Positions 44,820 through 58,087 of a stretch of DNA of 64,000 nt are shown here, piece after piece (position 1 is the first letter of the stretch; each line of letters begins with the position of its first letter). The stretch comes from an uncultured Clostridia bacterium (GTDB lineage: Bacteria; Bacillota; Clostridia; Christensenellales; UBA1242), in NCBI GenBank assembly GCA_934747885.1, contig CAKVHE010000001.1:445584-509583 (forward strand), given 5' to 3'. The translations under genes were made by a program, and so were the position numbers. Under the pieces are notes generated by a model. The model did no database searches. It was not told the origin of the DNA and saw only the letters and a list, made by a program, of their open reading frames with translations.

Positions 44820-46235
44820 ATGGATAAAAATTTTGAACAAAGCAATCTAGATTACAAAAAAATCTGGAACGATGCAAAAAAAATTATCAGTAGTGACTTA
44901 AAGGCACTATCTTTTGATGTATGGATTGCCAACCTCGAAGCAATTGGCGTTAGGGGCGACGCGCTAATTTTAAAATCTGCTAGCGAAGGGGCAAAGTCGG
45001 TTGTTATGAAAAACTACACCGACAAAATTAAACGAGCAGTAAATCAGGCTTCTAGTTACCTAAACTCTTTTGAGATTGTAACCGAAGATCAACTCGAAAG
45101 TGAACTGGTTTTTGCCGAAGCAAAAAAGCCGGAAGTGCCTATTGCCAGTTCTAAACAAAAAGCCGAAGCCAAAAAAGCAGACGGCTCGCGTTTGTATTAT
45201 TTTAACCCAAAATACACTTTTGAAAATTTTGTAACCGGCCCTAGCAATAGTTTTACTGTTTCGGCGGCGCGCGCAGTAGCCGAAAATCCGGGTACCAACT
45301 ATAACCCTCTCTTTATATATGGCGGCGTTGGTCTGGGCAAAACTCACATTTTGCACGCTATTGGCAATTACTTAAACGATACCAGACCAGAACTTAATGT
45401 TTTGTATATAACAACTGAACAATTTGTTAATGAATTTATAGAAACCGTTTCTAAAAACGAACTTAACCTAAACAGCGGTTTTAGAAACAAGTATCGCAAT
45501 ATTGATGTTTTGATTGTTGACGATATTCAATCAATAATTGGCAAGCCTATGGTTCAGGAAGAATTTTTCCATACCTTTAATGCGCTTATTGGAGCCAGCA
45601 AGCAAATTGTTATTTCGTCCGATAAACCACCAAAAGATATCAACCCGCTAGAAGAGCGCTTGCGTTCAAGATTTGAATGGGGGCTTATTACCGACATTGG
45701 TATACCGGCCATAGAAGAGCGTATTGCCATACTAAAAAAGAAAGCATATATGGATAGGCAACAAATTGACGACGAAGTTTTTGAATATATTGCCGAAGCC
45801 ATGACAACCAACATTCGTGAACTAGAAGGCTTTTTATCTAGATGTGTGTTTTATGCCGGTTTACTTAAAAAACCAAAAGTAACACTAGAGGTTGCCAAAG
45901 AGGCACTAAAAAATTACATCACTGCTACCAAAGCTAGTTACGACAGCGACAAAATTTTGGAAGAAGTTTGCAAGTATTTTAGTGTAAGCAAAAACCAACT
46001 ACTTGGCAAAGACCGCAAAAAAGAACTATCGTATGCTAGACAAATTTGTATGTACTTGTTTGACGAACTATTGGATATGCCGTACACCTCAATTGGCAAG
46101 TTTTTTAATAAAGACCATGCGACGGTAATTTACTGCAAAAACAAAGTTGCCAAACAAATGAAGACGGACAAACTACTAGAAACTCAAATAAAAGACATAA
46201 AAGATTTGCTTAACATTAAAAAGTTTTCAACATAG
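44820..46235 (+). CDS. dnaA: Chromosomal replication initiator DnaA
   Basis: Walker A GGVGLGKTHIL, Walker B VDDIQ, sensor and arginine finger region, and a C-terminal DNA-binding domain (KDHATVIYCKNKV). Confidence 0.95.
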   Translation: MDKNFEQSNLDYKKIWNDAKKIISSDLKALSFDVWIANLEAIGVRGDALILKSASEGAKSVVMKNYTDKIKRAVNQASSYLNSFEIVTEDQLESELVFAEAKKPEVPIASSKQKAEAKKADGSRLYYFNPKYTFENFVTGPSNSFTVSAARAVAENPGTNYNPLFIYGGVGLGKTHILHAIGNYLNDTRPELNVLYITTEQFVNEFIETVSKNELNLNSGFRNKYRNIDVLIVDDIQSIIGKPMVQEEFFHTFNALIGASKQIVISSDKPPKDINPLEERLRSRFEWGLITDIGIPAIEERIAILKKKAYMDRQQIDDEVFEYIAEAMTTNIRELEGFLSRCVFYAGLLKKPKVTLEVAKEALKNYITATKASYDSDKILEEVCKYFSVSKNQLLGKDRKKELSYARQICMYLFDELLDMPYTSIGKFFNKDHATVIYCKNKVAKQMKTDKLLETQIKDIKDLLNIKKFST

Positions 46236-46471
46236 TGTTGAAAAGTTGAAAACCCAAAGTTTTCAACAGATTTTTAACAATAGTTTATAAACTGTTTAAA
46301 CAGCAATTGTTAAAAAAACTAAAAACTTTAAACCTTTTTTCACACGGTTTTAAACCCGCGGAAAGCACGGAAAATAAAGGCTTTTAGCACTTTTTAACAT
46401 TTCAACACTGCATACTAATACTACTACTAATAAAAATAAAAAATACAAATAACCGAAGGGGAGAAACAAAA
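46224..46471. other. Candidate oriC (dnaA-dnaN spacer): box-like word cluster, DnaA-trio-like run, AT-rich tract
   Basis: TTTTCAACA/TGTTGAAAA inverted pair around the dnaA stop (46224-46244). More TTTTYAACA words at 46260, 46271, 46308 (inverted), 46391 and 46399. TACTAATACTACTACTAAT at 46413-46431 reads TAG TAG TAG TAT TAG on the other strand. An A/T tract follows at 46431-46452. Confidence 0.6.
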
Positions 46472-47578
46472 ATGAAATTTATTTGCGACGGGCTGGAACT
46501 TTCAGAGTCAATAAACAAAGTTTTAAAGGCTACTGCTATTCGTTCTACCAATCCTATTTTAGAGGGCATCAAGTTAAAAGCAGAAAACGATTCGGTAACC
46601 TTGCTTGCAACTGATCTAGAACTATCAATAGAAAACAAAATTCCTGCCGATGTAAAAATTGAAGGTGAAGTTGTGGTACAAGGCAAATTTTTTGCCGAAC
46701 TTATTCGCAAACTTGCTAACGAAAAAATTGAGATTTCTAAAAACGATAACGACAACACTATCCGCTTAAAATATACTGATAGTGAAGGAACCTTGCAAGG
46801 TATGTCGGTTAACGAATTTCCTGAAATTAAAAAGATTGATAGCACCGACCACATTACCATTAAACAAAAAGACTTTAGAGAACTTATTAACAAAACAATA
46901 TTCTCGGCAGCCTATGACGACACGCGTCCTATTTTAAAAGGTATTTTGCTTGAAGTTACCGACGGAAAACTTAACGCCATTGCGCTAGATGGCTACCGTA
47001 TGGCAATTTGTTCAAAATATTTGGTGGATAGCACTGCAAACTTTAACATTATTGTTCCAGCGCGCAGTTTGAGCGAAATAAGTAAAATTATTACCGACAA
47101 CGAAGATGATTTGGTAATTAACATTCAAAAGAATTATATATTGGTTGACCTTGGCGAAACAAAAGTTATTACCCGCCTACTAGATGGTGACTTTATTAAC
47201 TACAAACAAGTTTTGCCGGTGCAAACAAACACCACAGTAACCGTTGCCAAAAAGTATTTGGAAGAAGCCATCGAAAGAGCAAGTTTGCTTGCTAGGCTGA
47301 ACAAAAACAACCTTATTACTTTTGACATAAAAGATAAGATTTTAACTATCTCGTCCACAAGTGACTATGGTAATATCAACGAAAAGGTACCAATTAGCAA
47401 AGAAGGTAAAGATATTTTGGTGGCATTTAATGCGCGTTACTTTACTGAATGTATGAAACAAATTGAAGATGAGTATATTAAAATTAACTTTACCTCTTAC
47501 AACGCACCTTGCACCTTAACCAGCACTGAAAATAGTGAATACTTGTACCTCATTTTGCCAGTAAGAATTGGAGCATAG
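46472..47578 (+). CDS. dnaN: DNA polymerase III beta sliding clamp
   Basis: 368 aa with the three-domain clamp pattern (NPILEGIKL..., RPILKGILLE..., LDGDFINYKQVLP). AAGGGGAGA RBS. Confidence 0.93.
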   Translation: MKFICDGLELSESINKVLKATAIRSTNPILEGIKLKAENDSVTLLATDLELSIENKIPADVKIEGEVVVQGKFFAELIRKLANEKIEISKNDNDNTIRLKYTDSEGTLQGMSVNEFPEIKKIDSTDHITIKQKDFRELINKTIFSAAYDDTRPILKGILLEVTDGKLNAIALDGYRMAICSKYLVDSTANFNIIVPARSLSEISKIITDNEDDLVINIQKNYILVDLGETKVITRLLDGDFINYKQVLPVQTNTTVTVAKKYLEEAIERASLLARLNKNNLITFDIKDKILTISSTSDYGNINEKVPISKEGKDILVAFNARYFTECMKQIEDEYIKINFTSYNAPCTLTSTENSEYLYLILPVRIGA

Positions 47579-47579
47579 T

Positions 47580-48236
47580 ATGGAAACCAAAACAAAAACA
47601 AAATGGACAGACATTTATGTGTTTTGTTTGCTAGCAATAATAACGGCGTATCTAGTTTTTTTAATTGAAGAACTAGTGCGCTCGCTTATTACAAAGACAC
47701 TCTCACCATTTAGTCAAAACCTAGTGGTATCATTTGTAACAATACTAGCATGTATGCTTGCCTACTATTTGCTTATGATGCTGGAAAACAGAGGAAAAAT
47801 TGTTTTGGGCAATTGGTTAAAAGTTTTTATTTATACTTACTTTTTGCTAAGCCTAATTGTTTACAACAGTTTTAATTTGTTTACCATAAAATGGATAATA
47901 ATTGCCGTTTGCAACCTCACTGGAATTTTGCTATCTATTATTGGTGTTTCGGTTTATTACAATTATCTAAAAAACCAAAACAGTCAAGTTAGAGCAAAAG
48001 CAATTATGGTAGTGCTATTTGCCATTTGCTTTACCATTGCAGCCGGTTTAATTTTGGAACTTGGGCATTATTTGGTTACCTTAATTACCAAACAAACCCC
48101 ACTAACTTTTGTAGGTGCAATAATTAACCTTGCCTATATGTTGGTTGGTGCCGTTGCAATAAACATTTGCTTTTTGATTTCGCTTCACAAAGGCAAAAAG
48201 TTTATTAACAATTGCTTAATTTATGTTGAAAACTAA
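47580..48236 (+). CDS. Polytopic membrane protein, unknown function
   Basis: ATG 1 nt after the dnaN stop, GGAG RBS, 6 hydrophobic helices. Confidence 0.6.
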   Translation: METKTKTKWTDIYVFCLLAIITAYLVFLIEELVRSLITKTLSPFSQNLVVSFVTILACMLAYYLLMMLENRGKIVLGNWLKVFIYTYFLLSLIVYNSFNLFTIKWIIIAVCNLTGILLSIIGVSVYYNYLKNQNSQVRAKAIMVVLFAICFTIAAGLILELGHYLVTLITKQTPLTFVGAIINLAYMLVGAVAINICFLISLHKGKKFINNCLIYVEN

Positions 48237-48250
48237 ATAGTTTTATTTGT

Positions 48251-48285
48251 CCCCGCCAAGGCAATTCTTGGCGGGGATTTTTATT
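48251..48285 (+). terminator. Terminator of the dnaA-dnaN-membrane protein unit
   Basis: CCCCGCCAAG-gcaatt-CTTGGCGGGG followed by ATTTTTATTTT. Confidence 0.8.
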
Positions 48286-49093
48286 TTATTTTTTAACAAA
48301 AGTTTAAACAGTGTTAAAAACCTTGTTTTGTCTAGAGTCAACTGTGGAAAACTGCCAACTTTTTAACAATTGTTTAACTATTGTTGAAACTTTTTTATTA
48401 CTATTTAACTAGTTATATTAAAAATTTTACCGCCGCACGTACCCTTCTCTTTGTCTAAACTAAGCGCTAGCAAGAGCGCGCAAAAATTTGCAATAAAAAA
48501 TTTGCGCCTATATATTTTATTATTGGTTTTGCTTAGCAAAATGACATCAAAAGTTGGCGATGCCTTGCTAGTGCGACTACTTACCATCACAAAGACAAAC
48601 TGGCACAAATGACACCGTTTTGCCTTTGCTGCGCTTGCGGGCTGGCCATTACGCTAGGGGCAAGCCAAGATACTGAGCGCCTTTATTGTTGGGTTAAGTT
48701 AAACGCTAGATGAGTGAATTATCTAAATAAAAAAACGCCCCCCGTTTGGTCAATGATGTTTGAAACTAGCAAAATATAAGCACTTTAATCTATAAAAGAT
48801 TAAGGTGTTTTTTTCACTCTCTTAACTGTAAAAAGAAATAAATATTACTGACGTTGTCAAGGATTGTCGCAAATAGCGACATACACTTTAACCTTGACAA
48901 CAAAGAATATTTGTTTACCATAATAAGAAAGAAAAAAAATAACAGCAAAAAGCGAAAGTGTGTTATGTTTACCAACACTTTCGCTTTTTGTCTGCTTTAA
49001 TTTAGTTTATAAGTGTGTGCTTGTCTTCGGTGGAGCGAAGTGACACCGACTTGTATCAAGACAAGCACGCGTTTAAATGCCATTTTATATGTT

Positions 49094-50926
49094 TTAATTA
49101 TTAAAAATATTTTCTACACTATCAAATAAAGGTTTAAAATCTTTGAAAATTTCTTTATCCGCAGTTAATAAATCTTTCCAAAAATCTTTTTTGTGTGTAT
49201 CTTTCATTTTGTAAAAATCAAATAATTCTGAAACCTTTTCTGCTTTACTATTTTCTCTTAAAAAATCTTCTGAGACTAATGTTTCTATTTCAATAAAGCA
49301 ATAATTGCTAGATTTTTTATTTACATATTTTTCTAATCTGGTAGGGACGGGTATTGTCATAGCATATCTATTACAATGCATATTCTTTAAATACAATCCA
49401 GAATTAATAGAGCCTTTTTCTTCAGGATATAATTTTTCACCTAAATTATTTTTAAGTGTCTTTAATTTTTTATATTTTGAATAGCCTTCGTTATCAAAAT
49501 CAAAAAGACAAATTCGTTTACAATCACTATCTAATGTTGTATTTGGACAAGTTAAAAAATTATATAATCCACCAGTTGAATAACCGCCTTCAATTACAAA
49601 TTGTGCTATTGCTTTAAATTTGTCATTTATATTATTCTCTGTGATATCAGTTATATCTTTTAATTTTAAGTAAGCTATCTTATAAATTTGGCAATATTCA
49701 TCTTCCACCAAAAGAGCATTTCCGTTTTGTCCCAGAGTTTTTTCTAATTCAATAATTCTGTCGTTTTGATTTTTTAGTTTAGTATAAAAACTTTTATTTG
49801 CTTCTTTTAATTCCGCATAATCAAATTGATTGACATTAATTATTTTAGGAGATTTATTTTGTTGACTAAAAATCTCATAAAATTCAGCATAATCTGGTGC
49901 CAATGAAATAGTAGCAGGAGAATGTGTTGTTATTACTACTTGAATGCCTTTGTTAATATAAAAATCTTCAATAACTTTGTAAAACGCTTCAGTAAGTGAA
50001 GGATTTAATGGAGCATCATATTCATCAAATAAAACTAGTTTTACATCTTTACTTATTTCTTCATCAAGTGATATTAATGCCAATTTTAAAATTGCTTTCT
50101 CACCATCACTTAAATCAGTTAATGCTCTTATCTCATCATTATTTCTTAGTTTTGGGTTTTCTTCCATATTTGGAGTATGAAACGAATAATCATCTTTAAA
50201 TCTATATTTAAAGCCAAGATCTGTAAATAGTTTATTTAAAACTGTCCAAGGGGCAGTCCTTAACCATGCACTATTGTCAAAAATATCAGTGGTTTTAGAG
50301 CATTCTATTTGTCTATCCGCTCGTTCACAACAAGCCATATAAAACAAGTTCCCAATTTGCTGAATAATATCATTCTCATTTCTCCATATAAAATCTTGTG
50401 GAATAATATGTTCAAATTCATCTCTTGATATATGAAAAATATTGTCATCCCTATACTTTTCTTTTAATAAAGATAGAAGTTTTTCTATAGATCTCCAAGA
50501 CGGATTTTTTGTCCCATTATCATAAAATATAAGAGTTCCATCATTATATTTTTGTCTTTTTTTTGTGTCTAACCACTGCTGATCCTTATTAAATCTTATG
50601 TTTTGCGAATAAAAATTCCAAGCTTGATTTATATTGTTTTGTCTCAAGTTAATAGAATACTGACCAAAATCATTCCCTAAATTAATATTGTCACGGAATG
50701 ATAAAAATAAAATATTTTCAATGATTTCTATATTTTCGTTTTCATCTGTTATTTTCACGGTTCTAGATATTTTTTCATTAGTATTATTGGCTATTATTTT
50801 AAGTAGCTGACTCTTACCAGTTCCATTTACACCAGATATTACTATTAAATCACCATTAAAAATATAATCCGTATTTTGTTGATAAGATTTATATCTTTCT
50901 AATATTTTAATTTCTAGTTTTTTCAT
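49094..50926 (-). CDS. OLD-family-like protein: ABC-type ATPase fused to a Toprim/DUF4435-like C-terminal domain
   Basis: Walker A GVNGTGKSQLLK, signature-like LSDGEKA, Walker B LVLFDEYDAPLNP, H-loop ITTHSP. The C-terminal ~220 aa carry LLVEDEY (Toprim Glu) and CLFDFDNEG (DxD). Confidence 0.65.
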   Translation of the reverse strand: MKKLEIKILERYKSYQQNTDYIFNGDLIVISGVNGTGKSQLLKIIANNTNEKISRTVKITDENENIEIIENILFLSFRDNINLGNDFGQYSINLRQNNINQAWNFYSQNIRFNKDQQWLDTKKRQKYNDGTLIFYDNGTKNPSWRSIEKLLSLLKEKYRDDNIFHISRDEFEHIIPQDFIWRNENDIIQQIGNLFYMACCERADRQIECSKTTDIFDNSAWLRTAPWTVLNKLFTDLGFKYRFKDDYSFHTPNMEENPKLRNNDEIRALTDLSDGEKAILKLALISLDEEISKDVKLVLFDEYDAPLNPSLTEAFYKVIEDFYINKGIQVVITTHSPATISLAPDYAEFYEIFSQQNKSPKIINVNQFDYAELKEANKSFYTKLKNQNDRIIELEKTLGQNGNALLVEDEYCQIYKIAYLKLKDITDITENNINDKFKAIAQFVIEGGYSTGGLYNFLTCPNTTLDSDCKRICLFDFDNEGYSKYKKLKTLKNNLGEKLYPEEKGSINSGLYLKNMHCNRYAMTIPVPTRLEKYVNKKSSNYCFIEIETLVSEDFLRENSKAEKVSELFDFYKMKDTHKKDFWKDLLTADKEIFKDFKPLFDSVENIFNN

Positions 50927-50971
50927 TTGATTCTCCTATTTAAAATAGACAAACAATTTTCGTGGCATTGT

Positions 50972-51718
50972 TTAAAAATTGTCAAAACCTTCATATGTCT
51001 TAAATGCTAGCAAATACAAAGATTTCAAAAGATTTTTATCTTTTTGCTTAAGTTCTTTGAATACAGTATCTTTTTCTCTTTTATTTGCTATTGTTTTGTT
51101 TACAATTTTTGTTATAATTTCAGGCAAAACTTTACATAGTTTAGCAAATGCATCTTTTTCTCCAGTAACTATCTCATAAAATTTATCAATAGAGATTCTT
51201 CTAATTCTTTCATTTTCGACCTTTTGCCCGTTCATAGTTCTTTGCCATTTTATATTTTGACTATTTTTAGCAATTACTTCAACTAAAGCACAAATGCAAT
51301 CTGATTCTTTTAATGCTTGATTTTGCAAGTTGATGTAAACACTGTCAGCACCACCTTTATTCATTGTATTATGTTTATTCTTTAATTCTACATAATATTT
51401 TTGTGTACCATCATTAAAAATAATATCAAAACCCTTTTGTGGAACTTCACAGTTCCTTATATATTTGAAAATTTTTTGATGAAAATAGCCGATAGCATTT
51501 GTATTGCTTTTATCTCTTTGTCTTGCAATTTCTTCATTAAGAATTGTTTTTATTTTCTTATTATAAACAATAGAGTCGAATGTTAATTTTATTGGGTCAA
51601 TAATATTTTCGTTAAATCTTTCTAGATTGATACCTTTAAGAGTTTCTCTATATTCATCCAAAGTTTCCTTAATGTGATTTTCCAAATCGCTATCACTAAT
51701 AAAATTTAAATATGCCAT
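50972..51718 (-). CDS. Type II restriction endonuclease, Eco47II/Sau96I-like (PD-(D/E)xK)
   Basis: NFISDSDL..., NIIDPIKLTFD, RQRDKSNTNAIGYFHQKIF, FDIIF...YYVELKNKHNTMN and IRRISIDKFYEIVTG match my recollection of the Eco47II family. The start overlaps the methyltransferase stop (TAATG). Confidence 0.65.
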   Translation of the reverse strand: MAYLNFISDSDLENHIKETLDEYRETLKGINLERFNENIIDPIKLTFDSIVYNKKIKTILNEEIARQRDKSNTNAIGYFHQKIFKYIRNCEVPQKGFDIIFNDGTQKYYVELKNKHNTMNKGGADSVYINLQNQALKESDCICALVEVIAKNSQNIKWQRTMNGQKVENERIRRISIDKFYEIVTGEKDAFAKLCKVLPEIITKIVNKTIANKREKDTVFKELKQKDKNLLKSLYLLAFKTYEGFDNF

Positions 51719-52926
51719 TATTTTATCTCCTTTAGTACTTTTATAATTGATAAACCAATTTCTTTTGCTAAATTAACAGGTACAGCATTTCCAATTTGTT
51801 TATATTTACTATTTAAACTGCCAGTAAATTGCCATGTATCAGGAAACGATTGTATTCTAGCACTTTCTCTTATAGTAAAAGGTCTTGTTTCATCTGGATG
51901 ACATCTATCTGTTTGTTTCATACAAGGCGAACACAAAATTGTTAAACTTGGTTCATCCCATGAAATTCTTCTAGCCATTCCTGTTTTGCCACCACCAAGA
52001 TTATAAGACCCTTTCATATATGCTTTTGCAACTTCTTCAGGTAAATCTCGCCAGCATCCACCTGGTGGGACTAAATCAAATACTTCTTTTTTGCTTTGTG
52101 GATATGATGCACCTTCTGATTTAGGAACATCTTTTAAAGCATCTCTCAAAACAGGTTTATATTCATAAGGGGTAGGATATTTGAATTCAACTGGAATATC
52201 ATTTCTAATACCAATTATAACTATTCTTTCTCGTTTTTCTGCAACTCCATAATCCCAAGCATTTAATACTTTGTATTGAACTCGATATCCGATTTCTTCG
52301 AAAACATTTATCATAGTTTGTAATGTTTTTCCACCATCATGGCTAACAAGCCCTTTAACATTTTCAGCTAAAAACATTTTTGGTTTTAATTGTTTTAGTA
52401 TTTTTGCATAATAATAAAACATTGTACCCCTTACATCATTTAACCCCAATCTTTTTCCTGCATAACTAAATGATTGACAAGGGTAGCCTCCAGACAGTAA
52501 ATCTAATTCACCTTGTTTAATATTTAGCATTTTTAACAAATCTTGTTCTGCTAAATTTTCAACTGAATCGCAAATCACATTCCAATTTGGTCTATTTGCT
52601 TTTAATGTGTTACAAGAATCTTTGTCAAAATCATTTGATAATAAATTTTCAAAACCTGCTTGTTCTAAACCAAGAGCTAAACCACCAGCCCCTGCAAATA
52701 ACTCAACGTTGGTAAAAGTGTCTTTATTTGAGTCAACATTGAGCAATTTATTTGCATCAATACTAAAATTTATTACAATAGAACGAAGATTTTCATAGTT
52801 TGGTTTTGATTTTCCAGACAACCAATCACTAACTTGAGCTTGCGTAGCATTTATACTTTTGGCAAAACTTGTTTGGTTTAATCCGTTGTCATGGATAGTT
52901 TTTTGTAGTAGCTGTGCTAATTCCAT
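51718..52926 (-). CDS. DNA (cytosine-5)-methyltransferase with an N-terminal XRE-type HTH
   Basis: Motif I FAGAGGLALG, motif IV GGYPCQSFS, motif VI ENVKGL, motif VIII-like region, motif X QIGNAVPV. N-terminal HTH LNQTSFAKSINATQAQVSDWLSG. Start set to the ATG at 52926 (GAGGTG RBS). Confidence 0.9.
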   Translation of the reverse strand: MELAQLLQKTIHDNGLNQTSFAKSINATQAQVSDWLSGKSKPNYENLRSIVINFSIDANKLLNVDSNKDTFTNVELFAGAGGLALGLEQAGFENLLSNDFDKDSCNTLKANRPNWNVICDSVENLAEQDLLKMLNIKQGELDLLSGGYPCQSFSYAGKRLGLNDVRGTMFYYYAKILKQLKPKMFLAENVKGLVSHDGGKTLQTMINVFEEIGYRVQYKVLNAWDYGVAEKRERIVIIGIRNDIPVEFKYPTPYEYKPVLRDALKDVPKSEGASYPQSKKEVFDLVPPGGCWRDLPEEVAKAYMKGSYNLGGGKTGMARRISWDEPSLTILCSPCMKQTDRCHPDETRPFTIRESARIQSFPDTWQFTGSLNSKYKQIGNAVPVNLAKEIGLSIIKVLKEIK

Positions 52927-52946
52927 TTTACACCTCATATATGTTG

Positions 52947-53912
52947 TTAATTTATTATAGCATAAAAATTTTGAAAGTGTATCAATTTTATAGGAATTCC
53001 TATAATTTTTTTTGATAATATTTTTTGAAATTCCTTTAATTTATTCTCATCTTGTAATATTTCTAAATGTGGGATCTCAAAAACATCTAAAAATCCAATT
53101 TTTTTCAATTCTTCAATTTGTTTAAAAATATTTATATTTGCTTCACACCACATGTTTAAATCAAACAAAGCATTTATTTTTATACATGAATCTTGTCTAT
53201 TCTGCAAACCTTCATATGAGTTTATTCCATTTTCCATAATAACGGCATATCTCTGTTTTTCTTTGTTTGACATTATTTTAACATCATCAATACTTTGTAA
53301 GGGGTATCGTTCTACAACTTTATCATAATCGTAACCAAACATTTTTGCATTTCTTCGGTCTTGTTCTTCAGTATCAAATTCCTTAAAAACATGTTTTCCT
53401 TCTTCTGAAAGTTGGTAAGAATGAAATGTTGAATTTGGGTACTTAATCTTATTTGCATCTGTTTCTAATGTTGCATTTATTCTATTTGCCAATCTAAACA
53501 ATTCTTTATCGTGTGGCACAAAATCAATAGTTATAATATCTGGCAACACTTCAGAACATACATCTTTTACATGAATCAATTCATTCTTTTTATCTTGAAT
53601 TTCTTCTTCTAAAGTATTATATACTCTTGGTTTATAGTCATCATCCTTATGTGCTGACTTTTTATTTCTTTCATAATAAATTCTATCTATAATTTCATCG
53701 TTCTGTCTTATATTTTTTCTTTTAGTACTATTATTGAATAATTCATCTAAAAGATTTACCAAGTTGATGTAAAATATTTGTCTTAATTTGTCAGTTCTTT
53801 CTCTTAAATCTAAATTAGACAATTCCAAAATATTGTTAGAAATATATAAAAAGCTATCAATACACTTTTTGGCTGTTATTAAAAAATTTGCATTTTCCCA
53901 TTTGTTCTTCAT
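52947..53912 (-). CDS. Hypothetical protein with an AbiU2/HEPN-like RNKxxAH motif; first gene of the island operon
   Basis: 321 aa. Helical N-terminal ~130 aa with YYERNKKSAHKDDD (Rx4-6H). The C-terminal ~190 aa are unrecognised. AAAGGAA RBS. Confidence 0.5.
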   Translation of the reverse strand: MKNKWENANFLITAKKCIDSFLYISNNILELSNLDLRERTDKLRQIFYINLVNLLDELFNNSTKRKNIRQNDEIIDRIYYERNKKSAHKDDDYKPRVYNTLEEEIQDKKNELIHVKDVCSEVLPDIITIDFVPHDKELFRLANRINATLETDANKIKYPNSTFHSYQLSEEGKHVFKEFDTEEQDRRNAKMFGYDYDKVVERYPLQSIDDVKIMSNKEKQRYAVIMENGINSYEGLQNRQDSCIKINALFDLNMWCEANINIFKQIEELKKIGFLDVFEIPHLEILQDENKLKEFQKILSKKIIGIPIKLIHFQNFYAIIN

Positions 53913-53943
53913 AGTTTGATTCCTTTATTGTTTATACAATAAC

Positions 53944-53972
53944 ATTATAGCATAAAATGAACAATCTTTGTA
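53944..53972 (-). promoter_or_regulatory. Extended -10 promoter of the four-gene island operon
   Basis: Minus strand: TGCTATAAT (extended -10) with a weak -35 TACAAA 17 nt upstream, about 30 nt before the ATG at 53912. Confidence 0.5.
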
Positions 53973-54005
53973 TAAAAAAATATGCAAAGAATAATCTCTG
54001 CATAT
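53973..54005 (-). terminator. Terminator after jag
   Basis: Minus strand: ATATGCAGAG-attatt-CTTTGCATAT followed by TTTTTTT. Confidence 0.7.
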
Positions 54006-54055
54006 TATTTTGCAAGTTTCAAAAGTCTTTAACCTTGGGAGCGTTTATGTTTTAA

Positions 54056-54736
54056 TTAGTCATTAAAATCACGAGCGTTGTTGGTTTCTACCGAGGTCTT
54101 TTCTTCGGCGGTAACCTTCATTGATTTATTGTTTGGAATAATGGTGATATAGCGATGTGGTTCTTCATTTTTGCTGACGGTGGTAACATCTTCCCTACCT
54201 TCAAGCGCTAGGTGAATAATCTTGCGCTCGTAGGCGTTCATTGGTTCTAGTTTTTGTACCTTGCCTTCTTTTACGGCCTTGCTTGCAAGTTTTCGGGCAA
54301 GTGCACGCAAACTTTCTTCGCGTTTGCCGCGGTAACCTTCGCTATCAATAATAACGCGTTTGTACTCTTTGTTTGGTTTGTTTTTGTTGATTATTTGTGA
54401 CAACAAAAATTGAGTTGCGTCCAAACAATCACCACGTTTACCAATAATTGAGCCAACATCTTCGCCGGTAAAATTTATTTTTATTTCTTTGTCGCTTTCT
54501 TCAATCGTGCCAAAAATTTTTAGTCCAGTTGCAGCGCAAAAGTTGGTAACAACCTTTTCTACTTCGGTTTGGTTTTCAAATTCGCTGGTTAAAATTAGGC
54601 GAACTTTTGCCTTGTCAAACAAGCCACCTTCTTCTAGCACAATAACGGTTACGTCTTCACGCTTAGCGTTTAGTTTAAATAAGCCGATTTCGATGGCTTG
54701 GTCTACGGTTTTGCCGGATACTTCAATTGAATTCAT
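54056..54736 (-). CDS. jag: Jag/KhpB RNA-binding protein (Jag_N, KH, R3H)
   Basis: The C-terminal MNAYERKIIHLALEG...TVSKNEEPHRYITI is the R3H domain. Its ATG overlaps the yidC stop (TAATG). Confidence 0.88.
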   Translation of the reverse strand: MNSIEVSGKTVDQAIEIGLFKLNAKREDVTVIVLEEGGLFDKAKVRLILTSEFENQTEVEKVVTNFCAATGLKIFGTIEESDKEIKINFTGEDVGSIIGKRGDCLDATQFLLSQIINKNKPNKEYKRVIIDSEGYRGKREESLRALARKLASKAVKEGKVQKLEPMNAYERKIIHLALEGREDVTTVSKNEEPHRYITIIPNNKSMKVTAEEKTSVETNNARDFND

Positions 54737-55857
54737 TATATTTTATCTCCTATTTGCTTAAATTGTTTCATTTCTGGTTTTTGTTTTTTAGCAGTTTTGT
54801 TGGCATTTTTACGCAAAAAGTCGATATATTTTTGTTCTTCTTTTTGGGTTAATTTATCCACAATTTTGGTGCATACCAAACTTACTAAAATGCTCATTAC
54901 CGAACTAGTTACTAGGTACAAAGCAAAGGACGATGTACTGGTTAAGGCAAACACAACCATAATTATTGGTAAAATGAATTTCATCATTTTCATTGATGCT
55001 TGGGTTGGATCTGGTGCTTCGTGGGTTACGCCAAGAGCCTCTTCCATTTTGCGTTTGCTAATGTTGTTAGATTTTTCACTTACAAATTGGCTAAGCCAGG
55101 TTAGTGCGCCGGTTAAAATTGCCAAAATGTAGTAGCCATTCCAGCCGTCATATTTTTCTCGCGCAGCAGAAGTGACTATATTGTAGCGTTCTTCATTTAC
55201 GCCCTTTATAAACTCAATATATTCTTTGTTTTTGGAAGTTTTTACTGCCGATTCTATTTGTTTGTAAGTTGGAACAATTGCCGTTGAGGTGTCAGCCTTC
55301 CACAAACTTTTTATCCAAATAAACTCGGCGTTTTTGCGAGCTTCTTCATAGGCTTCAAGCGAAGCATTTTTTCCAGCCAAAAGTTTGGCGCTTTCGTCAC
55401 CTTCGGTTTGCTCATAGGCTTGCGTGTAAGCAGCGTCCATTTTTGAATATTCATCAATCATTTTGTAGGCCGAAACAATTCGCAATGCATTAAAGATGGT
55501 AAAGAAAACTACCAAAGTTAAAATAAGGTTGGCAAGCATAAACAAGCAAGAGCCAATCATGTTGTACCCTTCGCGCTTGTAAAGTGCGTTTATTTGTTGG
55601 TTTGCCATATCCTTGTTGGCGCCATACTTGGAGTTGATTTTTTGAACTTCTGGGTTTAGGCGTTTTTGAATAAGCGAATTTTTACGAGTGGAGTAACGAT
55701 TGTAAAAGTCTAGTGGGAACCATATTAACTTTATAAAAATGGTAAAGATAATAATTGTCCAACCAAAGTTGAGCCCCCACGACTCAATCCAGTACATAAA
55801 TTTTTCCCAAAGCCCGTTTGGTTTTGTCACAAGTAAAAAGTTAATTAAATTAGCCAT
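54736..55857 (-). CDS. yidC: Membrane protein insertase YidC
   Basis: Start set to the ATG at 55857 (AAGGAGA RBS). Has the YidC/Oxa1 core helices and a basic C-terminal tail. Confidence 0.85.
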   Translation of the reverse strand: MANLINFLLVTKPNGLWEKFMYWIESWGLNFGWTIIIFTIFIKLIWFPLDFYNRYSTRKNSLIQKRLNPEVQKINSKYGANKDMANQQINALYKREGYNMIGSCLFMLANLILTLVVFFTIFNALRIVSAYKMIDEYSKMDAAYTQAYEQTEGDESAKLLAGKNASLEAYEEARKNAEFIWIKSLWKADTSTAIVPTYKQIESAVKTSKNKEYIEFIKGVNEERYNIVTSAAREKYDGWNGYYILAILTGALTWLSQFVSEKSNNISKRKMEEALGVTHEAPDPTQASMKMMKFILPIIMVVFALTSTSSFALYLVTSSVMSILVSLVCTKIVDKLTQKEEQKYIDFLRKNANKTAKKQKPEMKQFKQIGDKI

Positions 55858-56087
55858 CGGTAATCTCCTTTTATGTTTTCGGGAACCAAATCTACCTTGC
55901 CCATATTTTTTGAGTTGCATCTAAAAATGCGTTTTATGCCAAGATATGTGCCTTTTATGGCGCCAAATCGGTTTATGGCAATTTTGGCAAAGTTTGAGCA
56001 ACTAGGCAAGTAGGCGCAATGATGCGGAATAAGTCTTGCCAGCGTTTTGTTGTATAGATTTATAAAAAAAATAAAAACTTTTTTCAT
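55845..56087 (-). CDS. yidD: Membrane protein insertion efficiency factor YidD
   Basis: 80 aa with CAYLPSCSNFAKIAI..G..KG..LGIKRIFRCN. Confidence 0.88.
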   Translation of the reverse strand: MKKVFIFFINLYNKTLARLIPHHCAYLPSCSNFAKIAINRFGAIKGTYLGIKRIFRCNSKNMGKVDLVPENIKGDYRWLI

Positions 56088-56088
56088 A

Positions 56089-56424
56089 TTACACTAACTT
56101 GCTGGAAATTAAAAAATCTTTTACCGTTGCTTCAATTTCGGCAAGGGTAAGTTTTTCTATTCCGCTGCGAGCAATAAAAATAAGGTTGTAACCCGTTTTA
56201 ATTTGTTCTAAATTGGCTTTTACCGCTTCGCGTAGTAAACGCTTTACACGGTTGCGGGTTACGCTGTTGCCAATTTTTTTTGATACAACAATACCCACTT
56301 TTACATCGCTAGAATTATTTTTTGCATAATAAAAGACAACAAACCTGCTTTTGCAGGGTTGCCCTTTACGAAAGATATAATTAAAATCCGAACGTTTTTT
56401 TAAGCGGTTTTGTTTTTTTAGCAT
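56089..56424 (-). CDS. rnpA: Ribonuclease P protein component
   Basis: Start set to the ATG at 56424. KKIGNSVTRNRVKRLLRE is the RNR motif. Confidence 0.9.
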   Translation of the reverse strand: MLKKQNRLKKRSDFNYIFRKGQPCKSRFVVFYYAKNNSSDVKVGIVVSKKIGNSVTRNRVKRLLREAVKANLEQIKTGYNLIFIARSGIEKLTLAEIEATVKDFLISSKLV

Positions 56425-56434
56425 AAGCGCCTTA

Positions 56435-56569
56435 CTAAACGGCCAGTCTTTTGCGACCTTTTGCACGACGTCTAGCCAAAACATTGCGACCACCTTTGGT
56501 AGCCATACGTTTTCTAAAACCGTGAACTTTTGTGCGATGTGCTTTTTTTGGTTGATAAGTTCTTTTCAT
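56435..56569 (-). CDS. rpmH: 50S ribosomal protein L34
   Basis: Hand-translated (too short for the ORF track): [44 protein letters not shown]. Confidence 0.95.
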
Positions 56570-56629
56570 AATCTTGCTCCTTTATAGATTGTGGCAAAAA
56601 CTGCCACTTTGCTTGTAATTTGCTTTGGT

Positions 56630-56658
56630 ATTATAAAATACCTTGGCAAAAATGTCAA
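56630..56658 (-). promoter_or_regulatory. Consensus promoter of rpmH-rnpA
   Basis: Minus strand: TTGACA, 17 nt, TATAAT. Confidence 0.7.
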
Positions 56659-56700
56659 CACTTTTGAAAAAAACCACCTATAATAATATTTTAGTAATAA

Positions 56701-56728
56701 TTGACAATAGTAAAAATTGTGATAAAAT
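56701..56728 (+). promoter_or_regulatory. Promoter of mnmE, placing the ATG at about +1 (leaderless candidate)
   Basis: TTGACA, 16 nt, TGATAAAAT (extended -10). Only 6 nt (TGACTT) separate it from the mnmE ATG, and there is no Shine-Dalgarno sequence. Confidence 0.55.
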
Positions 56729-56734
56729 TGACTT

Positions 56735-58087
56735 ATGAGTAATAATTTTGATACACAAAGCACGATTGTGGCAATAACCACGCCAATTGGCACCGGTGGC
56801 GTTGCAATTGTTAGACTAAGTGGCGCAAGCGCCATAAAAATTGCTGACAAACTTTTTATTTCCCGCGGGAAAAAACCAAGTGAGTTTTTGGCGCGAGAAC
56901 TTGTTTTGGGCAAATTTGAATACCATGGTTTTTTTGAGCAATGTATGTGCGTTGTTTTTGTTGCACCAAATAGTTTTACGGGCGAGAATGTGGTGGAATT
57001 TCAGTGCCATGGTGGCATAAAAATTGCTGAAAAAATATTGTCCGCTTGCCTTGAAAGTGGCGCGCGTATGGCACAAAATGGCGAATTTTCTTTGCGTGCA
57101 TTTTTAAACGGTAAACTAAGTTTGAGCGAGGCTGAGGGCATGATAGATATGATCAATGCCGAAACCGACGCCGAACTTTCGGCGGGCTACAAACTTATGT
57201 CGGGAAAACTTACTAAAAAGGTGCGCGAGTTTGAAGCAAGTTTGGTAGACTGCATAAGCGAACTAGAAGTTTCGTTTGATTATCCCGAAGAAGATATTGA
57301 ATACTCGTCTAGAGAAGACATTAAAAAGCGCTTAAACAAACTAAAAATCGAAATTGGCGCCTTGATTGATAGTTATCAAACCGGCAATATAATTAAAAAT
57401 GGCATAAATGTGGTAATTTGCGGCAAGCCAAATGTTGGCAAATCCTCACTTTTAAATGCTTTGCTAAAAAAAGATAAAGCTATTGTAACTTCGGTGGCGG
57501 GCACCACGCGCGATAGCATAGAAGACACTTTTGAAATAAACGGCGTAAAGGTTAATATTGTGGACACTGCCGGCATACGTGAAACCACTGACAAGGTGGA
57601 AAAAATAGGGGTGCAAAACGCCAAGAAAAAACTGGCAGGGGCTGACCTAGTTTTGTTTGTGGTAGATGGCTCAACGCCGCTTGACGCCGAAGACGAAGAA
57701 ATTTACCGAAAGGTAAAAAAGCAAAAACATTTGATAGTGGTAAACAAGGCGGACAAAAAGCAAGTCGTAAGCATAGACAGCGCTATAGTAATAAGCAGTA
57801 AAAAAGGTGAAAACTTGAAGGCGTTGACTGATGCAATTTATGAAAAAACGATAAAAGGCGAAATTTACGCTTCAAACTTGGTAGTAACAAATGCGCGCCA
57901 TGTGGAATGTTTAAAGCGTGCCCAAAAATCAATTTGTCATGCGCTTGCCGAAATAGATAGTCAAACACTTGACCTTATTTCGATTGACCTAAACGAAGCC
58001 TATACGGCTATTGGAGAAATTACGGGGGATACCAGCAACGAAAAAATTCTTGATAGCATTTTTTCTAAATTTTGTCTGGGTAAATAA
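56735..58087 (+). CDS. mnmE: tRNA modification GTPase MnmE
   Basis: N-terminal TIVAITTPIGTGGVAIVRLSG, G1 GKPNVGKSSLLNAL, G3 DTAG, G4 NKAD, C-terminal FCLGK. Confidence 0.93.
   Translation: MSNNFDTQSTIVAITTPIGTGGVAIVRLSGASAIKIADKLFISRGKKPSEFLARELVLGKFEYHGFFEQCMCVVFVAPNSFTGENVVEFQCHGGIKIAEKILSACLESGARMAQNGEFSLRAFLNGKLSLSEAEGMIDMINAETDAELSAGYKLMSGKLTKKVREFEASLVDCISELEVSFDYPEEDIEYSSREDIKKRLNKLKIEIGALIDSYQTGNIIKNGINVVICGKPNVGKSSLLNALLKKDKAIVTSVAGTTRDSIEDTFEINGVKVNIVDTAGIRETTDKVEKIGVQNAKKKLAGADLVLFVVDGSTPLDAEDEEIYRKVKKQKHLIVVNKADKKQVVSIDSAIVISSKKGENLKALTDAIYEKTIKGEIYASNLVVTNARHVECLKRAQKSICHALAEIDSQTLDLISIDLNEAYTAIGEITGDTSNEKILDSIFSKFCLGK

Follow-up and report, generated by a model that had tools for sequence, protein, structure and literature searches.

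Restriction-modification (R-M) operons have been described as hosts to further defence genes, with HEPN families and PrrC embedded in them and AbiU2 listed among these families (PMC3710099). The HEPN signature has been given as Rx4-6H with N, D or H directly after the R (PMC3710099). In PARIS, where the ABC ATPase AriA is joined by the Toprim protein AriB, the anti-restriction protein Ocr is sensed, and the targets of Ocr are type I R-M and BREX (PMC11464382). OLD proteins have been sorted into four classes, of which class 1 is a single gene away from defence genes, class 2 goes with the GajB helicase, class 3 is found with retrons and class 4 is split into AriA and AriB (PMC10568477), and the Toprim of retron Eco2 cuts tRNA (PMC12916289). 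HEC-04 is a single-gene ABC ATPase-TOPRIM defence that has been shown experimentally (bioRxiv 10.1101/2024.01.29.577857), and genes found inside type I R-M or BREX operons have been regarded as defence candidates under the principle of 'guilt by embedding' (Payne et al., bioRxiv 10.1101/2024.01.29.577857). Here, a cassette is described in which a predicted HEPN protein and a predicted OLD-type nuclease flank a type II R-M pair. It lies in a stretch of 64,000 nucleotides from an uncultured Clostridia bacterium (contig CAKVHE010000001.1 of assembly GCA_934747885.1, positions 445,584 to 509,583 of the forward strand), and this whole stretch is called the window below.

The reading that we consider the probable one is that these genes form a strain-variable, horizontally moving defence cassette, which was put together from three modules with separate histories. 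The cassette, its four open reading frames (ORFs) and its ends are as follows.

Whole cassette, 48750-54034, minus strand: 5,285 bp, inserted into the hairpin loop of the jag terminator
ORF1, 52947-53912, minus strand: divergent AbiU2-like HEPN candidate of 321 amino acids
ORF2, 51718-52926 (51718-52938 from its first ATG), minus strand: C5 cytosine DNA methyltransferase fused to a helix-turn-helix (HTH) domain
ORF3, 50972-51718, minus strand: type II restriction endonuclease of the Eco47II family
ORF4, 49094-50926, minus strand: predicted single-chain OLD-type ABC ATPase-Toprim nuclease
Left terminal inverted-repeat arm, 54006-54034: GGTTAAAGACTTTTGAAACTTGCAAAATA, read inward
Right terminal inverted-repeat arm, 48748-48776: GGTCAATGATGTTTGAAACTAGCAAAATA

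The cassette is present in some strains and missing from others. When 22 contigs with an identical Jag protein were read, 18 were empty, with jag running straight to the membrane-protein gene and dnaN, and 4 were occupied, the cassette splitting the hairpin of the jag terminator (AACGCTCCC-AAAC-GGGGGCGTT) at its loop. Against the empty-site contig L134 (L-numbers are labels of comparison contigs and loci), homology ends at 54035 and restarts at 48749 with a 4-nt CCAA overlap; a target-site duplication of AA (2 bp) fits these borders, and one of CCAA (4 bp) fits them as well if the repeats are shortened. The terminal inverted repeats are 29 nt long and imperfect, being complementary at 24 of 29 positions; in 1,500 random pairs of 60-nt windows the highest count was 23. 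Both arms are kept in L011 and L135 and absent at the empty sites; the inverted-repeat sequence of the cassette is GACTTTTGAAACTNGCRAAATA, and behind each repeat stands a terminator-like hairpin that faces inward, one of them at 54006-53979, upstream of the promoter-like site P1 listed below. No integrase, transposase or recombinase family was found among the four proteins in Pfam and NCBIfam, and mobilisation may take place in trans or by another route. With the terminal inverted repeats and the empty site in sister strains as marks of mobility, the cassette is a mobile and strain-variable insertion.

The repeat core TTTTGAAACTNGC.AAATA has also been seen, with at most two mismatches, at the borders of other cassettes (L005 at 9199 on the minus strand and L020 at 3742 on the plus strand), as well as at the left ends of L054-L057 and L142-L148. 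Two of those repeat-bordered cassettes hold different R-M systems together with an ORF4 relative, and there are hints here of a family of repeat-bounded elements that may carry defence cargo.

At the DNA level, comparison with related contigs resolves the cassette into a mosaic of three modules. L011 carries the whole of 54036-48726, 91 % identical, at another genomic location, and a further copy in L142-149, with 96 % DNA identity and an ORF4 protein that is 99 % identical, sits in a PDDEXK_4-DUF4238 island adjoining IS21. In L054, ORF1-ORF2-ORF3 run up to the ORF3 stop and are followed, after 2 nt, by the sequence that follows ORF4 in the window. L055 and L058 share only 54037-52934, at ~90 % identity, with the R-M pair and ORF4 absent and with the ORF1 module followed by other genes in an island that includes PDDEXK_4, DUF4238 and a PLD-helicase, the island in which the 96 % copy also sits in other genomes. 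With submodules carried apart in L054, L055 and L058, the four genes are very unlikely to be an obligate unit. The two exchangeable blocks on either side of the R-M pair were delimited as follows.

ORF4 module, 49084-50971, minus strand: precise insertion/deletion unit of 1,888 bp, consisting of a 45-nt leader, ORF4 and 10 nt
ORF1 module, 52934-54037, minus strand: exchangeable DNA block with the left repeat arm, P1, ORF1, a palindrome and P2

An earlier note on this DNA, made from the letters alone, had described an AT-rich four-gene operon, and much of that description stands. The four minus-strand ORFs lie where it placed them, with a 1-nt overlap (TAATG) between ORF2 and ORF3 and a 45-nt gap between ORF3 and ORF4; the motifs it quoted are present in all four; the block is indeed more AT-rich (GC 0.24-0.33) than the dnaN side (0.31-0.36) and the jag side (0.35-0.41); and no integrase or transposase gene lies inside, as it had said. 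Its domain guesses hold for all four proteins, with a C5 methyltransferase and RE_Eco47II at E ~1e-85, an OLD-type ATPase-Toprim ORF4 and a HEPN-like Rx5H protein in ORF1, among whose relatives AbiU2 matches recur below threshold. Other statements had to be amended. The 20-nt gap between ORF1 and ORF2 is correct to the ATG at 52926 but shrinks to 8 nt when measured to the first ATG of ORF2; the two hairpins said to follow the block are there, but the number is four; and the one extended -10 promoter, found at 53952-53944, is accompanied by an identical second one at 52962-52954 and by a promoter-like TTGACA-18-GAAAAT at 50985-50956, before ORF4, which weakens the proposal of a single co-transcribed operon. 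Given P2 and the site before ORF4, a single promoter for the four genes is not established. P2 with its palindrome, the site before ORF4 and a +1 A extension of ORF1, to which we return below, are features beyond those of the note.

P1, 53944-53952, minus strand: promoter-like extended -10 TGCTATAAT upstream of ORF1, read directly
P2, 52954-52962, minus strand: promoter-like extended -10 TGCTATAAT, identical to P1, upstream of ORF2
Palindrome, 52989-53004: perfect over 16 bp, TATAGGAATTCCTATA, directly upstream of P2
Hairpin 1, 49016-49068, minus strand: GTGCTTGTCTT...AAGACAAGCAC, conserved 3' structure of the R-M module
Hairpin 2, 48946-48990, minus strand: perfect 16-bp stem and then a T-run, terminator-like

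P2 has a TTGATA 20 nt upstream, at 52985-52980, and is kept in L011, L054 and L055. Downstream of ORF4, a non-coding tail of 344 nt (48750-49093) contains the four strong hairpins and folds at -101.5 kcal/mol, as compared with -61 ± 4.8 kcal/mol for shuffled sequences (z = -8.4). Hairpin 1 is kept in the window, L011, L054 and L142, and in L054 it comes directly after ORF3, while the tail beyond it is exchanged for other hairpins in relatives. Stacked terminators and an RNA are both candidates for the role of the tail; an Rfam scan of 43-58 kb gave no match in the cassette or the tail.

The central pair, ORF2 and ORF3, can be assigned from its sequence as a type II R-M pair, with a C5 methyltransferase and an adjacent endonuclease. 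ORF2 matches Pfam DNA_methylase (PF00145, E = 8e-88, positions 2-324 of 324) and PADLOC MTase_II (4e-138), carries the motifs FAGAGG, PCQ, ENV and QIGNAVP, and has an HTH_37/HTH_3 domain in residues 1-55. It probably starts at the ATG at 52926 and is 402 amino acids long, because a GAGGTG ribosome-binding site stands 4 nt before this ATG and a length of 402 amino acids is seen in all relatives. ORF3 matches RE_Eco47II (PF09553, E = 7.5e-85, positions 1-201 of 202) and PADLOC REase_II (3e-35). As a candidate operator for the methyltransferase's HTH there is the palindrome TATAGGAATTCCTATA, which L011 carries unchanged and L054 with a single mismatch; in L055, with no methyltransferase after it, the palindrome is degenerate.

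Depletion of GGNCC was considered as a test of the specificity of this pair and set aside. There are 20 GGNCC sites in the window and none in the cassette, with an observed/expected ratio of 0.25 by composition and 0.47 by a maximal-order Markov model; the depletion is real but not specific, since GANTC and TCNGA (0.17) and CCNGG (0.33), other interrupted 5-bp palindromes, are equally depleted over the 64 kb. This general depletion suggests that the lineage has long been exposed to several R-M specificities.

ORF1 has an N-terminal domain that is all-alpha and, behind it, a conserved C-terminal one (ENGINSYEGLQNRQDSCI), and it belongs to a small family, with 230 clusters among 1.84 billion representative proteins. 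Its motif, R82-[N/D]-K-x-x-A-H88, fits the published HEPN signature (PMC3710099), and R82, K84, A87, H88 and D90 are conserved in at least 90 % of 72 members of no more than 50 % mutual identity. Ten of these 72 relatives match HEPN_AbiU2 (PF18734), the best at E = 2e-4, as opposed to at most one member each for other Pfam families; all these matches fall under the gathering score (best 21.2 bits, as against 26.8), and ORF1 itself gives none. ORF1 had no match in Pfam, PADLOC, NCBIfam or PHROGs, tblastn against 72,556 plasmids returned no homologue, and none was found in phages either. The AlphaFold2 (AF2) model is all-helical (confidence score pLDDT of 82), and the HEPN entries 3jrt and 7bxo appear only among its weak matches in the PDB. 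Searches of PDB chains with two sequence profiles of the family (A1 and A4) found nothing, and the remote member P0377, used as a query that might lead on to AbiU2, retrieved no homologue but itself. We consider it likely that ORF1 is a divergent AbiU2-like HEPN protein, and on this assignment it is predicted to be a metal-independent RNase.

The length of ORF1 in the window, 321 amino acids, comes from a +1 A frameshift in an A7 run; its relatives have 303 amino acids and end in KKL-stop. The A-run at the 3' end of ORF1 (53001-53012) holds eight A's in the window and seven in L011 and L054, and the frameshift drops the TAG stop and adds 18 codons across the palindrome and P2. A real variant and a homopolymer assembly error are both possible. 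L135 also codes for an ORF1 of 321 amino acids, and its DNA is 100 % identical to the window over the 10 kb compared.

ORF4 is, by sequence and model, an OLD-type ABC ATPase-Toprim nuclease. Residues 1 to ~395 form an ABC ATPase (Pfam SMC_N/AAA_21) in which GxNGxGKS, LSDGEK, DE(Y)D and THS, the Walker A, signature, Walker B and H-loop motifs, are invariant in 36 sequences of the family. The Toprim residues E408, D476xD478 and E548 of the C-terminal domain are invariant as well, and the AF2 model (pLDDT 87) has a beta-alpha-beta sheet with E408 placed after its strand 1 and D476xD478 after its strand 3. The C-terminal domain alone gives no Pfam match; when the 36 C-terminal domains were made into a profile, the Toprim of retron Ec67/Eco2 was matched from end to end (E = 1.4e-8), its E/DxD/E residues falling into register, and a few relatives match OLD-like_TOPRIM (three relatives), Toprim or RloB. 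In Foldseek searches, the full-length model matched the effector of retron Eco8, Thermus OLD (6P74) and GajA, and the ATPase matched the heads of SMC, Rad50 and OLD. Since the Toprim of retron Eco2, the nearest to that of ORF4, cuts tRNA (PMC12916289), ORF4 may plausibly act on RNA.

Among PADLOC models, the best match of ORF4 is mad3 (3e-17), at the ATPase, with no other mad gene of the mad1-mad8 locus of MADS in the cassette. AriA (PDLC02980) matches residues 28-340 at 8e-14, with two other AriA models weaker and partial, and no AriB model is among the 25 of 62 PADLOC matches listed for ORF4. No AAA_13 match was found in ORF4, and the combination of an ABC ATPase with a C-terminal HEPN domain, as in PrrC and RloC, is absent. 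Against the 72,556 plasmids and PHROGs, ORF4 gave matches at the level of the ATPase only.

The neighbourhoods of both accessory families were read, in 80 metagenome loci for the ORF1 family and 36 loci for the ORF4 family. An HsdM-like gene lies directly upstream of ORF1 relatives in 39 of 69 loci and HsdS directly downstream in 35 of 72, at median gaps of 3 and -4 nt, and type I operons hold 18-19 of 39 lineages after dereplication at 90 % identity. Thirteen further loci, which form one lineage, lie between PglX and PglZ in BREX, as confirmed by Pfam. Of the 265 genes no more than two positions away from ORF1 relatives, 102 belong to R-M, compared with 7 of the 229 at five or more. In L070 (2065-4101), a single ORF fuses the ORF1 domain to HsdS. 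The remaining contexts that were checked are mostly defence (Shedu, Gabija, GmrSD, McrC-like, Fic and an RloC-like ATPase), and in L004 the relative stands among housekeeping genes. ORF4 relatives are found with type II systems in L005 (a Dam-type methylase alone), L011, L012 and L020 (DpnII-like sets in the last two) and L014 (a C5 plus an Eco57I-type methylase), in type I operons in L015 and L017, and between mod and res of type III systems, at gaps of 5-16 nt, in L010 and L034. In L008, L013, L016, L018 and L019 no R-M gene was detected near the relative, which often lies beside recombinases. For each accessory family, the linkage to methylation-based immunity is supported, by these neighbourhood counts, as exceeding chance.

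Fusions of the ORF1 domain and HsdS have been seen in both orders, in L070 and in protein P0301, and would, if they are not sequencing artefacts, be Rosetta-stone evidence of a physical link to the type I complex. In L112 (2511-7434), an ORF1-family gene (375 amino acids) lies directly upstream of a Gabija pair, consisting of a GajA with OLD-like_TOPRIM and a GajB helicase of UvrD type; the OLD class of this GajA differs from that of ORF4. The type I operon of L076 (127-8867) has three embedded genes in a row, coding for an RloC-like ABC ATPase of 868 amino acids, an AAA_15/AAA_21 ATPase of 618 amino acids and an ORF1-family protein. A specific HEPN-OLD partnership, which the ATPase of L076 and the GajA of L112 might have indicated, was rejected as a rule, being found in 2-3 of ~39 lineages; other ORF1 lineages have Shedu, GmrSD, Fic and similar genes as neighbours.

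The earlier note had proposed a functionally coupled module rather than a chance pile-up. This stands in so far as each accessory gene is linked to R-M, and the neighbourhoods support a non-random add-on linkage, on the model of PrrC and PARIS; it does not stand as a conserved four-gene system, since the check on co-occurring homologues that it had called for, over the two sets of loci, found the ORF1 and ORF4 families together only in L011, the 91 %-identical copy of the same cassette. The phrase 'not a named system' describes the combination fairly, but the principle has been published (PMC3710099; PMC11464382; bioRxiv 10.1101/2024.01.29.577857).

The cassette also has unusual surroundings. 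In the window (44820-58087) and in L134-L141, rpmH-rnpA-yidC-jag converges on dnaN-dnaA, with mnmE/mnmG on the opposite strand, an order of replication genes that is unusual yet common to all strains checked. Cumulative GC skew has its minimum near 54-56 kb. The label 'origin region', given by the earlier note, was tested by looking for a cluster of DnaA boxes beside the cassette, and the spacer at 48.2-48.8 kb holds one box and no cluster. A weak Rfam match inside dnaA (45318-45397, minus strand) is to AsdA, an antisense RNA of dnaA mRNA, with 31 bits against a gathering score of 52 (E = 0.005).

In the reading that we favour, the Eco47II-type R-M pair would cut unmethylated incoming DNA and would be expressed from its own promoter, probably autoregulated through the N-terminal HTH of the methyltransferase. 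ORF1 and ORF4 would be self-contained second-line effectors of the abortive-infection type, needing neither this R-M pair nor each other, an autonomy that we propose because relatives of both also stand without detected R-M; their nuclease activities, substrates, triggers and abortive outcome we infer. Both families would be carried preferentially inside methylation-based defence operons, where embedding would give shared mobility, shared expression and cover against phages that escape restriction. While the gene identities, the modularity, the insertion polymorphism and the recurrent embedding documented above agree with this, several points weigh against it. No terminator was found between the four genes within the block, and read-through co-transcription from P1 is possible. 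The HEPN membership of ORF1 is drawn from a motif and sub-threshold profile matches, and its model, searched with Foldseek, had no match in the PDB at E < 1 and nothing significant in BFVD. The tight packing in type I operons, together with the ORF1-HsdS fusion of L070, suggests a physical or regulatory coupling to the R-M complex.

Such coupling is what would be expected if ORF1 and/or ORF4 were latent guards, like PrrC or PARIS, that fire once a phage disables methylation-based immunity, the trigger being a DNA-mimic anti-restriction protein or a disrupted methyltransferase complex; the coupling would be generic, with no fixed four-gene system. For ORF1 this is favoured by the fixed place of its relatives, after hsdM and before hsdS, where the genes overlap or almost touch, by the one fusion to HsdS, and by their occurrence between PglX and PglZ, type I R-M and BREX being the two targets of Ocr (PMC11464382). 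ORF4 relatives are similarly wedged between mod and res, their ATPase resembles AriA, and PrrC-EcoprrI (PMC3710099) and PARIS are precedents. Both families, however, also occur away from any detected R-M, their partners are unrelated (C5, Dam-type, N6_N4, HsdM and PglX), which makes a common protein contact hard to picture, and the neighbours in BREX and type I loci include stand-alone defence genes (Shedu and an RloC-like ATPase), as in a general insertion hotspot. On balance we regard guarding as tentative, and as unlikely to be the true account. Doubtful, in our estimation, is also a bolder joint version, in which the ORF1 family would be a new class of PrrC-like latent HEPN RNases, docking in type I R-M and BREX on the methyltransferase/specificity core and placed here beside a type II methylase, the ORF4 family would be single-chain PARIS-like sensors, phage anti-restriction proteins that disable this core would release both 'anti-anti-restriction' alarms, and the transposase-less, repeat-bounded element would target terminator loops.

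Three further explanations were weighed and all appear far less probable. A system of four co-transcribed genes that is obligate, its R-M, HEPN and OLD proteins depending on each other, would account for the single strand, the tight packing and the lack of an internal terminator, and the arrangement does recur at three genomic sites with 91-99 % identity; these recurrences are one recent lineage, though, the submodules occur apart at ~90 % identity, the two families meet, among the 80 and 36 loci, in L011 only, and there are internal promoter-like sites, so that we give it very little credence, the arrangements of L054 and L055 in particular largely refuting it by sequence comparison. It is just as improbable that ORF4-type proteins are methylation-dependent restriction nucleases partnering the adjacent methyltransferase, which would mean two endonucleases per methylase here. 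Although the order of L005, where HTH, Dam-type methyltransferase and ORF4 relative follow one another and no endonuclease can be recognised, puts the relative in the usual slot of a restriction endonuclease, the associated methyltransferases differ in specificity and chemistry, most loci hold complete R-M sets with their own endonuclease or Res, and the closest Toprim, that of retron Eco2, cuts tRNA (PMC12916289). ORF4 as the missing endonuclease of orphan methylases, as L005 might be read, was likewise judged unlikely, since the partner methylases are too diverse. Nor do we expect a selfish addiction element, in which the R-M pair and two toxic nucleases would stabilise mobile DNA by post-segregational killing: a mobile, strain-variable, repeat-bounded cassette with several potentially toxic nucleases could suit such a role, but no antitoxin-like partners were seen, and the accessory relatives stand in bona fide defence loci (BREX, type I and III R-M, Gabija and Shedu), and this scenario strikes us as scarcely credible.

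Under the favoured reading, that of a moving cassette of three modules, the locus offers a natural example of defence-island assembly, in which near-identical modules are joined in varying combinations with base-pair-precise junctions on a small repeat-bounded element carried by some strains of one gut Clostridia species. It also provides two testable defence candidates that current libraries miss, the ORF1 family, which is almost a fixture between hsdM and hsdS, and the ORF4 lineage, which lies inside type I, II and III R-M. What would be new, on the evidence of sequence, is an AbiU2-like HEPN family not described before and a lineage of OLD type whose context lies outside the published classes 1-4. 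If either were to monitor methylation-based immunity, the principle of PrrC and PARIS would reach new protein families as well as type II and III systems; otherwise the cassette would be an ordinary defence-island pile-up.

Among known systems, the R-M pair resembles Eco47II/Sau96I-type R-M with a regulatory HTH on the methyltransferase, for which we assume autoregulation like that of SsoII; here, ORF2 and ORF3 overlap by 1 nt, the HTH is N-terminal and a palindrome lies beside the promoter, with the regulation itself putative.

ORF1 is like PrrC of PrrC-EcoprrI, the anticodon nuclease of a type Ic R-M system (PMC3710099), in that a predicted Rx4-6H HEPN protein lies in or beside R-M genes. 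Its relatives likewise occur inside hsdMSR operons, and the logic of a second line behind restriction would apply to them. ORF1 differs from PrrC in having no ABC ATPase and no AAA_13 match and in flanking a type II pair, and the slot of PrrC is between hsdS and hsdR, as opposed to that of ORF1 relatives between hsdM and hsdS; latency and a trigger can be ascribed to ORF1 by analogy only. With lactococcal AbiU2, the match to HEPN_AbiU2 in ORF1 relatives covers the region of the R...H motif, and ORF1 differs by its extra conserved C-terminal domain.

ORF4 is to be set beside the class 1 OLD proteins (P2 Old and Thermus OLD) and HEC-04. Its model matches OLD, GajA and the retron Eco8 effector over the full length, whereas sequence profiles of OLD, GajA and ATPase-Toprim proteins match its ATPase only. 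Its context fits none of the published classes 1-4, as its relatives lie within R-M operons of types I, II and III; no UvrD-like helicase or reverse transcriptase is adjacent to ORF4, and the protein is fused rather than split. Retron Eco2 (Ec67), an RT-Toprim fusion, has a Toprim like that of ORF4, in which the partner domain is an ABC ATPase in place of reverse transcriptase and msDNA, and its tRNA cutting gives no more than a lead on ORF4. Like ORF4, PARIS combines an ABC ATPase and a Toprim effector, and it is the model for sensing anti-restriction, a logic that the earlier note had proposed, though it consists of two proteins in a 6:3-type complex, as opposed to the fused ORF4, in which AriB/DUF4435 is unmatched among the matches listed. 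PADLOC-DB v2.0.0 contains no model built for either family; there, ORF1 has no match and ORF4 matches at the level of the ATPase only, and in their nesting within methylation-based defence operons both families behave like the candidates put forward through guilt by embedding.

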